Part shown: positions 9,564 to 38,838 of the stretch, in pieces
How the letters are laid out: each line of letters starts with the position of its first letter
Numbering within the stretch: position 1 is the stretch's first letter
IMG/VR virus record: IMGVR_UViG_3300042375_000763
Span: 1-64,000 of that record
Strand: one strand, 5' to 3'
DNA: 64,000 nucleotides
Source: a virus
Program-made: the position numbers and the translations under genes
The notes under the pieces: generated by a model
What the model saw: only the letters and a program-made list of their open reading frames with translations
Databases searched by the model: none
What the model was told of the DNA's origin: nothing

Positions 9564-9667
9564 GTCTGTCTCCTACTCTGTGTGTCATACGCCCTTATTT
9601 ATAGACATTATAACACAAGAATAGGTAATGAGTATTGACATTCCTGAAAGGCAGGTATTCGGTTATG

Positions 9668-14616: not shown

Positions 14617-14659
14617 TAGATAAACTCCTATTTTTTACTTATTTATAAAGTAAAAAAAA

Positions 14660-14857
14660 TTAAGTTCCTTGATGAAACTCATGTTTTACTGCAAAGAACA
14701 TTGGAGTCCAGCCATTAAAGCCAGAGCCAAGATTTAGTTTTCGGCAAAGATCTTTTGCTTTCTTTTCCTCAAATGATAATTCAATAAGTACATCACCACC
14801 TTTTTCATAGATGTTATATGCGGCGGCTGCATTAGTCTTTTTTACAATATAACTCAC
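14660..14857 (-). CDS. Hypothetical protein
   Basis: ORF coupled to the gp41 stop; GFNGWTP motif. Confidence 0.6.
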   Translation of the reverse strand: MSYIVKKTNAAAAYNIYEKGGDVLIELSFEEKKAKDLCRKLNLGSGFNGWTPMFFAVKHEFHQGT

Positions 14858-16278
14858 AATATATCCTCTGCTTCTTTCAATTTCTTTTTCCGTTTACTTG
14901 ACACATCAGCCCATTCATCATTAAATGCACTTTTGTCAAATACAGGTTTATCTTCATCTTTGGTAGTTTTACTTTCAGACATTACTTTGTTTTGTGCATC
15001 TTCCTCCAGATCAAAGATTTTCATTTTTGCACGGTCGATACCAACCATGAATCTCTTGTAATATGATAAATCACCCCATCGGTTTTTCAATTGTTTTATC
15101 ATCAATTGTTTACGTTCTTCAAGTTCCTCATTACTGATTAAACCAAAAATAGCATCAGCTGTATGAGCTATACCCATGGATTCTGATGTATTGGACAAGT
15201 CAACATCAGAACTGTCATACGCGCTACGGTTAAATTGTGATGATGTGACAATAGCAACACCAAATTCCATTGCAAGACCACGAACTTCTTCGGCAATAGA
15301 TTTAACCAATGTGTATGAATTTGCAGAAGCAGCACCTTTGACACGAGATGACGAACAGATATTTAAATAGTCAATAAAGATGATATCCGGCGTAAAATTT
15401 TTCTTGAGTCTAAGTTCGTTTAATAGATGTCGAAAATGTCCAGAATGTGCAGAACCAGTTGGATATTCTTTGATGATTAATTTACCAGGTGTTTTACTTT
15501 TGATTTTATTGACACGAGATTGGTATACTTCCTTTGGTAATACCAATAAATCATCAAGTCTAGTATCTAATAAATTAGCATCTATTCGGCGGGCAACTTC
15601 TTCCTCGGGTAGTTCCATTGTAATATATAAAACATTTCTTCCGAACATCAAACTTGTCGCTGCCAAGTGACATTTAATAAGTGATTTACCACCACCAGTC
15701 GTAGCAAGTAAAACTGTCATTGACTTTCTTGGAAGGCCACCTTTTGTAATTTTATTGAAGATATCAATGTCAAATGATAGACGCTCTTCTTTTCTGTGAT
15801 AATATTCATACCGATCATCAAAATCCTCAAGAAAATCGTGACCTACACTGCTGTCAAAACTGATACCCAATGAATCTGATAATAGTTTAGGTAGAGCACC
15901 TTTATCAAAATCTTTATCTTGACCATCTAGAATTAGAATTGCTTTGCGGATTGAGTTATAAAGATCTTTGTCTTGACAGAATTTTTCTGTTTCACTTAAG
16001 AGCCATTCTTGATTTGTATTATTATCAATAGCAAGTTCATCAATAGATTTGCATACCTCTTTATATGCATCTTCATTCAAGTCTTTTCGATTGTCAATGG
16101 AAATTTTAAGTGCTTCAATCGACGGAGGTTCTTTATACTTTTCTACATACTCCGAATAAGTAGAAAAGATCTTTTTGTGCGTATTTTCATCGAAATACTC
16201 ATCTTTAATATAAGGGAAAACCTTGCGGGAAAATTCTTCATTAAATAAAAGATTCGAAATAATTGTCTTTTCTATCAT
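14854..16278 (-). CDS. gp41: Replicative DNA helicase (T4 gp41-like)
   Basis: Walker A ATTGGGKS, IFIDYLNIC, QFNR, QLKNRWGD; start at MIEK (SD AGAGGTGG). Confidence 0.95.
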   Translation of the reverse strand: MIEKTIISNLLFNEEFSRKVFPYIKDEYFDENTHKKIFSTYSEYVEKYKEPPSIEALKISIDNRKDLNEDAYKEVCKSIDELAIDNNTNQEWLLSETEKFCQDKDLYNSIRKAILILDGQDKDFDKGALPKLLSDSLGISFDSSVGHDFLEDFDDRYEYYHRKEERLSFDIDIFNKITKGGLPRKSMTVLLATTGGGKSLIKCHLAATSLMFGRNVLYITMELPEEEVARRIDANLLDTRLDDLLVLPKEVYQSRVNKIKSKTPGKLIIKEYPTGSAHSGHFRHLLNELRLKKNFTPDIIFIDYLNICSSSRVKGAASANSYTLVKSIAEEVRGLAMEFGVAIVTSSQFNRSAYDSSDVDLSNTSESMGIAHTADAIFGLISNEELEERKQLMIKQLKNRWGDLSYYKRFMVGIDRAKMKIFDLEEDAQNKVMSESKTTKDEDKPVFDKSAFNDEWADVSSKRKKKLKEAEDIL

Positions 16279-16351
16279 AAACCACCTCTTTGGAAACAAA
16301 TTATGCTCTGATCATTGCTGATCAGAGCAGTCTTAAATCATAATAACATAC

Positions 16352-16903
16352 TTATTCGTCGATGTCAACATCTTCTTCATCATCGTCAATACGTGTTTGT
16401 GATCCACCAGATCCACCACCAGTCAATTTAAACTTACGTTCAACATAGTCTTTAAAAACTTTGTCTTTGATTAGATTTTCAAAGTATGCATCATTATTCT
16501 CAATGTCTTTTGCACGATAACTCTTTTCAGAGATTTCACCGGTTTCCATATCCACAGTCTGATACCAACCAACTTTTGGTTTAATAATGTGTCCAGATTC
16601 TTGAGCAAGCTCAAATAGTGAGGACCATTTATAGATACCGCTGTCAAAGAATACACTGAATGGAAGCTTTGACTTTTCCTTGACATAACGAGACTTTTCA
16701 ATGTTGATAGTAAATTTGAAACCCGCGAGTTCAGTTCCATCTTTCTCCTGTGATTTGGAGATGATAAAGATTTGGTTGGCCGAGTAATAGATACCAGTAT
16801 TATGTGTTACTACTCCATTTCTTAGAATATAATGTTCGACTTCGTTTACAGATAAATCGTAAACAGGCTTTTTACCTACACTTTTAATTTGCGATATTTT
16901 CAT
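16352..16903 (-). CDS. uvsX: UvsX recombinase C-terminal half fused to split intein IntC
   Basis: 35-aa IntC MKISQIKSVG...VYDLSV...NGVVTHN, then the extein TGIYYSANQIFII...KSRYVKEKSK. Confidence 0.93.
   Translation of the reverse strand: MKISQIKSVGKKPVYDLSVNEVEHYILRNGVVTHNTGIYYSANQIFIISKSQEKDGTELAGFKFTINIEKSRYVKEKSKLPFSVFFDSGIYKWSSLFELAQESGHIIKPKVGWYQTVDMETGEISEKSYRAKDIENNDAYFENLIKDKVFKDYVERKFKLTGGGSGGSQTRIDDDEEDVDIDE
16799..16903 (-). mobile_element. Split intein C-fragment (IntC, 35 aa)
   Basis: Block F VYDLSV, block G HN, +1 residue Thr. Confidence 0.92.
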
Positions 16904-17786
16904 CTTTTTTCCTTTTGTTGTTATTCCAACCCTGATAAAGTCTACCGAACTTCCACCCTTCTGGCAATTCTTTTTCTGACTTTATCTTTATGTTTTCTAT
17001 ACCATTATTAATCCATTTGCTACCAGTGGATTTTTTTTCTGATAATGTGTAAGGATTAACCCACAGTTTTTTGTCATATGAATCTGATAAATCTTTATGG
17101 ATTCTTACAGTTGCACCTGTTTCTTTATTTTTTAACATAATAAGATTTTTTCTTCCTATTTTCTTTTTATGTTCTTCAGATTTAGGTTTTTTTGCTATAT
17201 TTTCAATCCATTCTTGAACTTTCTCAGGAGACCTAGTTTCTCTGCTATTGGCGATTGCAATTTTACTTCTAGTTTCGTCAGAATGAGTTTTTCCATAAAA
17301 TCCATTTTTATCACCCGAAGATCCTCTTTTCTTTCTTTCCTCTGAGGTTAAAATAGTACCTTTAGAAACACCTACATATTCACCGTTTAGAACTTTTTTA
17401 TGATTTCTTGGCAACCTTACTGTTTTACCTGTTCTGGTATTTTTATATGTTGCGTAATCTGAATCACTAAAAGTATTTACTGATGCTAATGATAAATTAA
17501 AATATTCTGTATCTGCAACAACATCTAAGTGTTTTTGTATTTCATACTCATACTTTAATGTTTCTTTATAATCTTCAAACGTGGCTAAAATTTCAGTTTC
17601 AATAATATCTTCATTTATGTAATCTTTAAAAAATTTATAAGTCGAAGAACCATAGTATGGTTTATTTCTTTTATCATAAATAACACCCTCAAATAGTGTT
17701 GAATTTGATTTAGAACCTATATACATATATGGTTCTTCGCCTCTTTCTTTGCGTTTTGTAAAAGTAAGTTTATATACACAGTGCAT
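16884..17786 (-). CDS. Free-standing homing endonuclease (GIY-YIG/Seg-like N-terminus, NUMOD3 repeats)
   Basis: CVYKL...YIGSK...YYGSS; NGFYGKTHSDETRSKI and KPKSEEHKKKIG; WINNG...GWKFGR C-terminus; lies between the intein halves. Confidence 0.88.
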   Translation of the reverse strand: MHCVYKLTFTKRKERGEEPYMYIGSKSNSTLFEGVIYDKRNKPYYGSSTYKFFKDYINEDIIETEILATFEDYKETLKYEYEIQKHLDVVADTEYFNLSLASVNTFSDSDYATYKNTRTGKTVRLPRNHKKVLNGEYVGVSKGTILTSEERKKRGSSGDKNGFYGKTHSDETRSKIAIANSRETRSPEKVQEWIENIAKKPKSEEHKKKIGRKNLIMLKNKETGATVRIHKDLSDSYDKKLWVNPYTLSEKKSTGSKWINNGIENIKIKSEKELPEGWKFGRLYQGWNNNKRKKDENIAN

Positions 17787-17789
17787 TTT

Positions 17790-17830
17790 GGTATCCTTAG
17801 TTAACAGTATAGTAGATACCTGTATTTATA
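17790..17830 (-). promoter_or_regulatory. Late promoter plus SD-sequestering hairpin of the endonuclease
   Basis: TATAAATA at 17823-17830; GGTATC...GATACC stem covering AAGGA just before the ATG. Confidence 0.6.
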
Positions 17831-17833
17831 AAT

Positions 17834-18739
17834 TTAAAGAACTGTGCAATCAATTCCTACTGTTAGATCTTTGGCTTCTACCCATTTACCATTAACTAAA
17901 AACTTATGCTTATCGGAAACAGTAACTGTATAACCATCCTCAAATGTAATTTCATAACACTCTGGCATACCATCTTCTAGAGTATCTGGGTTCCACACGT
18001 GAGTCACAATTTGCTCGCCACTGAGTGTAATAACTTTTTCACCCACATTAAAATCTTCTACCTTTTTCAACCCGTCTGGTGTTTGTATTTCAGTACCCGC
18101 AACAACACAACCACCAGAAACAATAGCCTTTGGATAAAGACCCATTTCCTGATAGATATGATTGACGGCAAGACATGGGATATTCTTTGTAGTCAAGTGC
18201 GGAGTGATAATGCGGAACAAAGATTTTAGACTCTTTGCACGTGACATATCAGCAACTGACTTTTCATTTTCTGCATCTTCTACTTCTTTCTTGGAAGCAA
18301 GGTTACCGATAGAGTCAATCATAATAAAGACATTATCCTTTTTATCTACTTCTTGTAGACGTTGGACAATATCAAATTTAAGCTGTTCAACATTTTCAAG
18401 TGGTATGTGAATAACGCGGTTACTATCAATATTAAAACTTTCAAGATAATCGGGCGTGATACCAAATTCTGAGTCATAAAGAATAGCAACACCTTCTTTA
18501 TACTTATCAAGATATGCTTTCATACAATATAGTGATAGCATGGTTTTAAAGCTCTTCGAAGCACCAGCAACTACTGTTAGACCTGGTAGCAAACCACCTT
18601 CAAGTGAACCACTGAATGCAATGTTTAAGATCGGAAGATCTGTAGGGATTATATCTTTAGCGTTAAAGAATGTTGATTTGGAAAGTACTGATGCAGCTTT
18701 GATATTACCTGCTTTTAACATTTTTTCTAATAGACTCAT
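17834..18739 (-). CDS. uvsX: UvsX recombinase N-terminal half fused to split intein IntN
   Basis: AGASKSFKT P-loop, YDSEFG, IDSIGNLASKKE, DMSRAK, then SGG|CVVAGTEI intein start. Confidence 0.93.
   Translation of the reverse strand: MSLLEKMLKAGNIKAASVLSKSTFFNAKDIIPTDLPILNIAFSGSLEGGLLPGLTVVAGASKSFKTMLSLYCMKAYLDKYKEGVAILYDSEFGITPDYLESFNIDSNRVIHIPLENVEQLKFDIVQRLQEVDKKDNVFIMIDSIGNLASKKEVEDAENEKSVADMSRAKSLKSLFRIITPHLTTKNIPCLAVNHIYQEMGLYPKAIVSGGCVVAGTEIQTPDGLKKVEDFNVGEKVITLSGEQIVTHVWNPDTLEDGMPECYEITFEDGYTVTVSDKHKFLVNGKWVEAKDLTVGIDCTVL
17837..18109 (-). mobile_element. Split intein N-fragment (IntN, 91 aa)
   Basis: Block A CVVAGTEI, block B TVSDKHKF, WVEAKDL, then a stop codon. Confidence 0.92.
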
Positions 18740-19020
18740 CTATGAATTCCTTCTACAATTCGTTTTAATTTTTCTTTATATTCTTGGATTTTTTCAACTC
18801 TGTTTGGCCAATGTATTGTTGATTTTTCTGGATTTTTACAAAGATTATCCAAGAAAGGAATAATTGATGAATATAGAAGTTTGAGTCTATCTTCTAAATC
18901 TTCTATTTTTTCTTTATCACCGCGGATAACTGCCCCTAGGCTTTCCTTGACCTCATGTACTTCTTCATCAGCAAAACTAAAACCAAAATCAAAGTCTTCT
19001 ATTTTAGCCTCTTTTTTCAT
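18736..19020 (-). CDS. Conserved hypothetical phage protein
   Basis: DFDFGFSF, PFLDNLCKNPEK.TIHWPNR. Confidence 0.65.
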   Translation of the reverse strand: MKKEAKIEDFDFGFSFADEEVHEVKESLGAVIRGDKEKIEDLEDRLKLLYSSIIPFLDNLCKNPEKSTIHWPNRVEKIQEYKEKLKRIVEGIHR

Positions 19021-19118
19021 GTGTATATCCTCTCATTAAAGTATACAATAAACTCGATTGAATCGAGTGAATGTTAATTGGAGAGGGAATTAACCCTCTC
19101 CATCTTTAAGTTGTGATT

Positions 19119-20060
19119 TTAGGTCTTTGAAAGGTTTCTGAAGAACTCTAGATCATCTTCATCTTCGTCAGTTGAAGCGGCTTGTTCTTTCATTGGAGCT
19201 GCAGGTGTCTCTTTTTTAGGGGCCTGTGCTTTACTCATATCGAGTTCACCATATAGATCTTCCTCTGCTGAAGACGCAGCATTGGAGCGAAGATCGGCAT
19301 CAGCACCAACAATGCCAAGTACACGATGAAGTTTTGCCTTTAGTTCATCATATGGTTTGAAGTTCTTTGGATCAATGACATCCTTGAGAGAATGTGATTG
19401 TTTCCATACTCTTTCAATTTCAGAATCATCTTCGAAGAAAGCAGACGATGAATCAAATTCAGATTTATCATAGTTTGGATAACCTTCAAACACCCGGATT
19501 TTCAATCGGAAGTTAGCACCTTCCCATAGATCGAATGGGTTAACAGGCTTTTCATCTTCGAATGAAGGATTCATAAGATCATTGAGTTTGTCCCAGATCT
19601 TCTTGCCATATTTAAACAAGAATACCTTGCCATCATTTTCTGGGTTGCCAGAATCCTTAACGATATATACGTTAGAGATGTAATGAAGTCTGCGTTTCTG
19701 GTCACGTGCTTGTTTACGTTCTGGAGCACTATCGTCAGTACTCACATTCCATAGTTTGGTATTTAGTTCAGATACTGGGTCTGGTTGACCAACTGTCGTA
19801 AGTGAATTTTCGATATACCAACCACCAGGACCTTTAAACCCGTGGTCCCATAGACGTACGAATGGCATATCCTCGCCTTCTGGTGAGTCTAGAAAGCGAA
19901 TAATCGCAAAACCATTACCTGCTGAGTCTCGAGTCGGTTTCCAATATTTACCTTCATTTGGATCGGCATATGATTTGGAACTGATTTTTGTGAGCTGTTG
20001 GTTCAGTTTCTCGAGTGAATTTGAACGGTTCTTCTTTAGTGCTTGAAAATCTACAGCCAT
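19119..20060 (-). CDS. gp32: ssDNA-binding protein (gp32)
   Basis: GNGFAIIRFL, HGFKGPGGWYIENS, FDLWEGANFRLKI, acidic tail. Confidence 0.95.
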   Translation of the reverse strand: MAVDFQALKKNRSNSLEKLNQQLTKISSKSYADPNEGKYWKPTRDSAGNGFAIIRFLDSPEGEDMPFVRLWDHGFKGPGGWYIENSLTTVGQPDPVSELNTKLWNVSTDDSAPERKQARDQKRRLHYISNVYIVKDSGNPENDGKVFLFKYGKKIWDKLNDLMNPSFEDEKPVNPFDLWEGANFRLKIRVFEGYPNYDKSEFDSSSAFFEDDSEIERVWKQSHSLKDVIDPKNFKPYDELKAKLHRVLGIVGADADLRSNAASSAEEDLYGELDMSKAQAPKKETPAAPMKEQAASTDEDEDDLEFFRNLSKT

Positions 20061-24159: not shown

Positions 24160-24240
24160 TATTTAATTTTTCCCAGTTGTATAAATGTAATAAGAAGAGG
24201 AGACATTCATCCCCTCTTCTATTTATAATTTACAGTGAAA

Positions 24241-33897: not shown

Positions 33898-33933
33898 TAT
33901 GAGGGTGATTGTTATGGGCTATTTATAATTAGA

Positions 33934-38728: not shown

Positions 38729-38838
38729 GTTGGATAGAATTATTTATATTTGGTCGGTCTCTCCCTGGTGTCACACCTTTGCAGAGCGGTCTCTACAACC
38801 GTAAAGGATGCTTCGATGTTTGCAGAGCCTTTGGATTT

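Follow-up and report, generated by a model that had tools for sequence, protein, structure and literature searches.

A uvsX gene of an uncultured T4-like lake phage fractured at a split intein, with a GIY-YIG/NUMOD3-type endonuclease gene between the halves

The uvsX locus

The window analysed here comprises the initial 64 kb of a virus contig of 80 kb in IMG/VR (IMGVR_UViG_3300042375_000763), from an uncultured T4-like lake phage. Our subject is its uvsX gene, which lies in two pieces on the minus strand, each fused to one half of an intein (IntN or IntC), with an endonuclease gene between them. The two half-genes are on the same strand and keep the order of the host protein; each has its own stop or start codon and ribosome-binding site, and both start codons are preceded by ribosome-binding sites of the AAGGA type. 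The endonuclease gene and the C half share 20 nucleotides (nt), the end of the former being the start of the latter. The open reading frames (ORFs) and features, with lengths in amino acids (aa), are as follows.

18739..17834, minus: ORF of 301 aa, UvsX-N plus IntN
18110..18739, minus: uvsX N-extein, 210 aa, with Walker A GASKSFKT and the C-terminal end SGG (Pfam RecA; T4 UvsX alignment; PDB 3IO5)
17834..18109, minus: IntN, 91 aa, running from Cys1 through block B (S-D-K-H) to CTVL, with the stop codon at 17836-17834 (TIGR01445; gp41-1 intein 6QAZ, E 5.5e-6)
17823..17830, minus: TATAAATA, a T4-type late-promoter motif and putative promoter, 36 nt upstream of the endonuclease start codon
17790..17820, minus: predicted 7-bp hairpin, its 3' arm over the AAGGA ribosome-binding site of the endonuclease gene (folding)
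17786..16884, minus: endonuclease ORF of 300 aa, with a GIY-YIG-type domain at about aa 1-107 and a NUMOD3-containing DNA-binding part at about aa 150-255 (Pfam, PHROG, AF2, VIA-align)
16903..16352, minus: ORF of 183 aa, IntC plus UvsX-C
16799..16903, minus: IntC, 35 aa, MKISQIK...VYDLSV...VVTHN (TIGR01443; phrog_18112)
16352..16798, minus: uvsX C-extein, 148 aa, Thr+1 first (TGIYYSANQ), stop codon included (Pfam T4_UVSX_C; T4 UvsX alignment)

When the exteins are joined, the 210 and 148 aa (script count) meet at ...AIVSGG | TGIYYSANQ. Cys1 is residue 211 of the N half (codon 18109-18107), and the Thr+1 codon is 16798-16796. The N-extein is 50% identical to T4 UvsX and covers its residues 1-211; the C-extein is 49% identical and continues from Thr212 onward. 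The two therefore abut at Gly211|Thr212 with no gap, overlap, lost or doubled residue, a colinearity that bears out an earlier reading of the sequence alone (hereafter the sequence-only reading), according to which joining restores SGG-TGIYYSA. Both exteins match PDB 3IO5 (E 3.5e-62 for the N-extein and 4.1e-30 for the C-extein), and Pfam places RecA on the N half and T4_UVSX_C on the C half (1.4e-11). The insertion site is the end of the disordered L2 region of UvsX. In an AF2 model of a contiguous allele, P0007, the 14 residues preceding the intein have pLDDT below 50, as expected of a mobile L2, and the extein part superimposes on the T4 UvsX core (3IO5) with a TM score of 0.92, the intein forming a separate insert.

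Anatomy of the split intein

The sequence-only reading had proposed a Cys1/Thr+1 split intein with a 91-aa IntN and a 35-aa IntC. The script counts agree, and both halves exceed the cut-offs of the NCBIfam intein models (intein_Nterm, TIGR01445, 27.1 bits against 24.5; intein_Cterm, TIGR01443, 25.9 bits against 15.6). The opposite net charges of the halves were likewise recovered on recounting: IntN has 17 D/E against 7 K and no R (net -10), and IntC, which ends in HN, has 4 K and 1 R against 3 D/E (net +2). IntC also matches positions 1-35 of phrog_18112 (E 4.7e-15).

Cys1, S65 and H68 are invariant in all 115 related N halves, block B being S-D-K-H at IntN 65-68. D16, H24, H34 and N35 of IntC are invariant in six aligned C halves, blocks F and G reading VYDLSV...EHY...VVTHN|T, and no C half examined departs from HN|T. 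Residues 6-130 of a contiguous allele, L013, align with the fused gp41-1 intein 6QAZ (E 1.3e-11), with weaker matches to the Npu DnaE, DnaX and RadA inteins; in the alignment of L013 with 6QAZ, the split point of the window intein coincides with the natural split of gp41-1. The P0007 model (91% identical to the window over IntN; mean pLDDT 81.9) has an all-beta intein region with pLDDT of 70-95, and the split point falls in a five-residue loop, 301-305, between two strands. By alignment and model, the split lies at the loop that houses the endonuclease domain of bifunctional inteins, and sequence similarity places the window element as a class 1 (HINT) intein related to the gp41-1 split intein.

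Compared with intein-bearing relatives, the intein halves have replacement differences (pN) of 0.08-0.27 and synonymous differences (pS) of 0.5-0.9, the same range as the exteins; pN is set against pS, and no dN/dS ratio is given, because synonymous sites are saturated. Since the catalytic residues are invariant and the intein halves have as few replacement changes as the exteins, we infer that the intein is under purifying selection and kept active, presumably for splicing.

The endonuclease between the halves

The sequence-only reading also described a free-standing 300-aa GIY-YIG/NUMOD3 gene between the halves, and this description is upheld by the NUMOD3 score (24.3 bits against a cut-off of 20.4, aa 157-177, Pfam), by PHROG matches to two homing endonuclease families (phrog_7504 and phrog_314) and by the predicted fold. 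A set of 1.84 billion representative proteins contains 735 relatives of the enzyme, and measured against this family the ORF is full length; the best of them is 66% identical over residues 1-293. V4-Y5, Y22-I23-G24, E80 and N97 are kept in an alignment of 52 relatives, the window having V4-Y5-K6.

The AF2 model of the endonuclease has a pLDDT of 90.3. When it was compared by VIA-align with 48,161 chains, the catalytic domain of I-TevI (1LN0) came first (Z 6.9, root-mean-square deviation 3.1, 83 of 92 residues aligned), followed by the GIY-YIG restriction enzyme PD-T4-3 (5.5), the UvrC N domain (4.7) and T4 EndoII (4.0), and all four align to endonuclease residues 1-100. Foldseek returned no match to the model at E <= 0.001, 1LN0 ranking first at E 0.99. 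Judged by sequence motifs and by the model, the protein is a divergent GIY-YIG enzyme with a NUMOD3-containing DNA-binding part. T4 SegA was considered as a close relative and ruled out (E 0.014 over 33 residues).

Presence and absence of the cassette

We compared the locus with the 80 IMG/VR loci that have the most similar N-extein, 63 of which have an uninterrupted GG-TG junction. The closest intein-less loci (L054, L055 and L059) are syntenic with the window, at 93-97% protein and about 85% DNA identity over several kb of flank, and because their alignment with the window breaks exactly at 18110|16799, positions 16799-18109 are a clean 1,311-bp insertion. Within 42 nt around the site, L054 differs from the joined flanks of the window at one position, and that difference is synonymous.

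The stretch is present in 24 lake-water metagenome runs released from 2018 to 2025. In four of these runs, possibly from the same sampling campaign as the source, contigs span both the boundary of the N half with the endonuclease gene and that of the endonuclease gene with the C half, with 0 differences. In one 2024 lake metagenome (X20), a 109-nt contig joins 16798 to 18110, skipping exactly 1,311 nt; this contig is an intein-less allele of a related strain and, being short and about 94% identical, is weak evidence. As the element is present in that sample too, uvsX alleles with and without the insertion seem to occur side by side in one lake sample.

An allele series at one site

In a tblastn search, IntN matched 25 GenBank records from about 17 cultured Straboviridae at 52-63% identity, in each case as this intein at the insertion site of the window. 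The hosts of these carriers are Escherichia, Shigella, Salmonella, Klebsiella, Enterobacter, Proteus, Yersinia, Pseudomonas, Shewanella and Vibrio. Among the carriers are Yersinia phage TG1, Proteus phages Pm5461 and PM2, Pseudomonas phage PspYZU05, Shewanella phage Thanatos-1, Salmonella phages CF-SP2, SEA1 and pSe_SNUABM_01, and Escherichia phages HY03, ELT1, SYGD1, BYEP01 and RPN226. GenBank labels their two halves 'RecA-like recombination protein' twice, or uvsX_1 and uvsX_2, and never mentions an intein. The cultured elements compared share the site and the HN|TG junction with the window, their IntN is 55-63% and their IntC about 70% identical, and most of them have a homologous GIY-YIG/NUMOD3 nuclease, 37-48% identical to that of the window. 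They differ in that their IntN has 96-97 aa, owing to a small insertion, as against 91 aa, and in that their hosts are enterobacteria, Vibrio, Shewanella and Pseudomonas, whereas the window comes from a lake organism. PHROG 18112 is a family of IntC-UvsX-C proteins, and the element forms 383 clusters in a collection of 5.8 billion proteins.

The UvsX site thus shows empty alleles, contiguous mini-inteins, split inteins without a nuclease and split inteins with several nucleases. The contiguous mini-inteins have 129-135 aa (P0007, P0045, P0093, P0100, L013/L014 and L027), and the split alleles without a nuclease have 43-53 nt between the halves (L010/L011 and L026). Split alleles with a nuclease hold at least five kinds of nuclease gene in the same gap. 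One is the GIY-YIG/NUMOD3 type of the window, found also in L007, L021 and most cultured phages. Another is an HNH enzyme (L015, L016 and L019), whose nuclease domain is other than that of the window. Then there are another GIY-YIG type, whose DNA-binding domain is I-TevI-like (L017, L023 and L024), a SegE-like enzyme (Thanatos-1) and a 497-aa enzyme of the homing endonuclease family phrog_3339 that also matches the HNH family phrog_559 (L009).

The HNH enzymes of L015, L016 and L019 have the C-terminal DNA-binding part in common with the window endonuclease (53% over 95 aa). By sequence comparison, these enzymes and that of the window represent a swap of nuclease domains on a common targeting module. 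In Yersinia phage TG1 (L003, 1671-2678), the endonuclease homologue is broken into a 133-aa GIY-YIG ORF and a 201-aa DNA-binding ORF, and this nuclease is probably decaying inside an intact split intein.

The spacer before the endonuclease gene

The short spacer between the IntN stop codon and the endonuclease start codon contains TATAAATA, the T4 late-promoter consensus, and nine of 15 related loci, with nuclease genes of unrelated types, have the motif at the equivalent place. Over the window as a whole it occurs 13 times, against 6.4 expected, and none of 100 shuffles reaches 13. The minus (coding) strand accounts for 11 of these, and the majority of the 13 stand 12-60 nt ahead of an ORF start; the sites include 2367-2374, 9596-9603, 14640-14647, 24220-24227, 33920-33927 and 38741-38748. 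Because the motif is twice as frequent as expected, strand-biased and near ORF starts, we think it probable that the phage uses T4-type late promoters.

Twelve other loci were folded, and 11 of them are predicted to have an equivalent of the window hairpin with z <= -2.5; for nine of these 11, none of 200 shuffles was as stable. Throughout the family, either the ribosome-binding site or the start codon of the nuclease gene lies under the 3' arm of the hairpin. In I-TevI and MobE, such a hairpin delays translation until late transcripts are made that start inside the hairpin. By analogy with these two, translation of the window endonuclease may be delayed until late in infection. Hairpins have also been marked in the 5' untranslated region of nuclease genes at fractured loci (Dassa 2009, PMC2677866).

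Interpretation and alternatives

We suggest, with a probability of about 0.82, that uvsX of the window is a fractured gene, whose product would be assembled by a trans-splicing split intein, and that the gene between the halves encodes a homing GIY-YIG/NUMOD3 endonuclease. On this view, a 1,311-bp mobile cassette consisting of IntN, the homing endonuclease gene and IntC sits between the codons that match T4 UvsX Gly211 and Thr212. The halves would be translated separately, and the acidic IntN and basic IntC would associate into a HINT fold. Class 1 trans-splicing would follow, with an N-S acyl shift at Cys1, attack by Thr+1 and cyclisation of IntC Asn35, to give a 358-aa UvsX with the native GG-TG junction. 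The endonuclease most likely cuts the intein-less uvsX of co-infecting relatives, its candidate target being an intact junction like that of L054, and recombinational repair would then copy the whole cassette, that is, homing would occur. Its translation is probably delayed to late infection, in that the hairpin would mask the ribosome-binding site in read-through transcripts, and the late promoter would yield transcripts that do not include the 5' arm of the hairpin.

Several of our results weigh against this interpretation. Thr+1 is a poorer nucleophile than Cys or Ser, and therefore splicing may be slow; among the runs listed as holding the stretch, none is an RNA run. Neither the Pfam GIY-YIG model nor any NCBIfam GIY-YIG model matches the endonuclease, and no invariant Arg follows YIG in the alignment of 52 relatives, in which K26, Y44 and S47 are invariant; an Arg equivalent is hard to place because the family has an insertion after YIG. 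The hairpin of the window is weak when taken alone (minimum free energy -7.3 kcal/mol, z -1.5, trimmed) and is not significant when folded with extra flank (z -0.39); we accept it because the pattern is family-wide. Finally, the extein flanks of the window hold no co-conversion tract from any sampled intein-bearing relative. Their identity to intein-bearing relatives is 0.68-0.89 and never exceeds that to the intein-less L054 (0.86-0.97), even beside the junction, and therefore the polymorphism may stem from exact loss in relatives just as well as from gain in the window.

The missing co-conversion tract, the unmatched Pfam model and the lack of an invariant Arg would also fit an endonuclease that no longer homes, being inactive or having another role, in a cassette inherited only vertically; the broken TG1 homologue and the nuclease-free alleles L010 and L026 point the same way. 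We nevertheless consider this unlikely in view of the full-length ORF, the Y..YIG motif, E80 and N97 that are invariant in 52 relatives, a fold that is confidently GIY-YIG in the model and the presence/absence polymorphism among close relatives. Moreover, at least five kinds of nuclease turn over at one spot, which indicates ongoing mobility. A different objection concerns the intein: its halves might only dock the UvsX pieces non-covalently, with no splicing, and leave a two-chain recombinase. T4-like phages do have split genes whose products function without being spliced, for example the intein-less split NrdA of Aeh1 (PMC2677866), and Thr+1 is, as said, the weaker nucleophile. Docking would, however, have no need of Cys1, of Ser and His in block B, of the penultimate His and terminal Asn, or of Thr+1, yet these are invariant across hundreds of diverged alleles, and a 126-aa domain at the end of L2 would probably disturb the filament and its DNA contacts; we regard docking as very improbable.

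Mobile nucleases do break genes, and the window comes from a metagenome assembly, so a decaying pseudogene or an assembly artefact has to be weighed as well, together with an RNA intron. The evidence speaks against all three: replacement changes in the intein halves are about as rare as in the intact exteins, both halves have start codons with AAGGA-type ribosome-binding sites, and intein blocks A and G form the exact limits of the insertion. The arrangement recurs with 0 differences in separately assembled runs released from 2018 to 2024, and it recurs in cultured, viable phages. RNA splicing that joins the halves had been named by the sequence-only reading as a result that would speak against it; a permissive Rfam search of 15500-19500 gave no group I or II intron and one chance-level snoRNA match only, and the RNA intron was rejected. 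To these three explanations taken together we give hardly any weight.

If uvsX is indeed fractured by a trans-splicing intein, the element could be more than a parasite. Conditional splicing of UvsX, triggered for example by redox state, single-stranded DNA or infection stage, might time recombination-dependent replication, and the gap between the halves might be a shared landing pad for nucleases. Splicing as a timer is conceivable because the recombinase needed for homing must first be trans-spliced, and we offer it as a long shot.

Relation to known systems

Genes of this layout were described by Dassa 2009 (PMC2677866), who list gp41, IMPDH, DnaE, NrdA, NrdJ, DNA ligase and terminase as fractured and name UvsX only as an intact neighbour of gp41 loci. 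Like those loci, the window has the host N half with IntN, a free-standing homing endonuclease gene (some of theirs being GIY-YIG) and IntC with the host C half on one strand, together with opposite charges, hairpins in the nuclease 5' untranslated region and a T4-like background; a nuclease-free allele is known in one case of the Dassa 2009 set, as it is among the UvsX alleles. It differs from them in that the host gene is uvsX and in that the element is found beyond metagenomes, in cultured phages as well. The best solved relative is the gp41-1 split intein (PDB 6QAZ and 6RIZ), with the same S-x-x-H block B, the same split point and a similar size (a fused chain of 128 aa against 91 + 35 aa in the window). 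Identity to gp41-1 is about 30%, however, the host protein is another one, the +1 residue is Thr, fixed by the GG-TG motif of UvsX, and the polarity of charge is reversed, gp41-1 having a positive IntN and a negative IntC (PMC2677866).

The mycobacterial RecA inteins (NF007072) likewise interrupt a recombinase of the RecA family; the window scores 20 bits against NF007072, whose cut-off is 1024, and matches through the RecA part only. RecA-family inteins are classical, and those of mycobacteria are contiguous, have an internal endonuclease domain and occupy other sites. An artificially split version of the M. tuberculosis RecA intein was made for trans-splicing (Mills 1998, as cited by PMC2677866). 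In T4 itself, SegA is a free-standing GIY-YIG endonuclease whose gene adjoins uvsX and which cuts within uvsX (PMC2988022). It resembles the window enzyme as a uvsX-associated GIY-YIG nuclease, and differs in that segA lies beside an intact uvsX and not inside an intein.

The sequence-only reading was aware of no characterised example in UvsX, and in this it agrees with the literature: we found no paper describing a UvsX intein in a full-text search, which left subscription journals and intein catalogues outside. Rarity, on the other hand, does not hold, given the cultured carriers (about 17), PHROG 18112 and the 383 clusters. The type of layout has been known since 2009, a natural split intein in UvsX is unreported in the literature searched, and the element is common and not unique.

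UvsX would thereby join the few genes in which fracture by a split intein is known. At this single site we see every stage of the evolutionary series put forward as a model in Dassa 2009 (PMC2677866). Since cultured carriers exist, the UvsX element is a tractable model: they grow on E. coli K-12, Yersinia, Proteus and Salmonella, which makes trans-splicing, homing and regulation accessible to phage genetics. A gp41-1-like pair of 126 aa with Cys1/Thr+1 and reversed polarity is also a plausible additional orthogonal ligation tool, for which the gain would be incremental.

Further observations

Other arrangements were met in related sequences. P0016, a 409-aa metagenomic protein, is a UvsX N half with two inteins: the usual split IntN at SGG|C and, 13 residues upstream at NHTYQ|TQEMF, an extra contiguous mini-intein of about 130 aa (Cys1...HN|T), which marks a second insertion site in UvsX. 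In the IMG/VR contig L132 (1-4781) and in P0076, uvsX is apparently in three pieces, the first of them off the contig. The 363-aa middle gene has a long IntC-like start, with HHN|T at the Walker A Lys|Thr, and the usual IntN at its end. In L132, the middle gene is preceded by a nuclease-like ORF and is separated from the IntC-UvsX-C gene downstream by 74 nt with no nuclease; gp41 of the same contig is likewise fractured, at the P-loop, with a very short IntN of 28 aa. In Salmonella phage CF-SP2 (OM912978.1, 155759-158723; L182), the annotation reads uvsW_1, a hypothetical gene, uvsW_2 and uvsW_3, and the C-terminal IntN-like segment of uvsW_1 is 31% identical to the UvsX IntN (E 1.9e-9). From this similarity, uvsW seems to be a second recombination gene that is fractured in this cultured phage.

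A hidden Markov model built from the 115 N halves found no further intein of the UvsX-intein family in the window, and megablast of 20 kb against GenBank phages gave no near-identical relative. The gene order in the window is of the T4 type, with gp41 helicase (14854-16299), uvsX and a gp32-like ORF (19119-20060). The gp41 helicase beside uvsX is intact, at 481 aa, though gp41 is the classic host of fractured-gene split inteins. Between it and the C half of uvsX, a consensus scan marks one more feature.

16304..16329, minus: putative terminator-like hairpin of 11 pairs with a T-rich tail, after the C half

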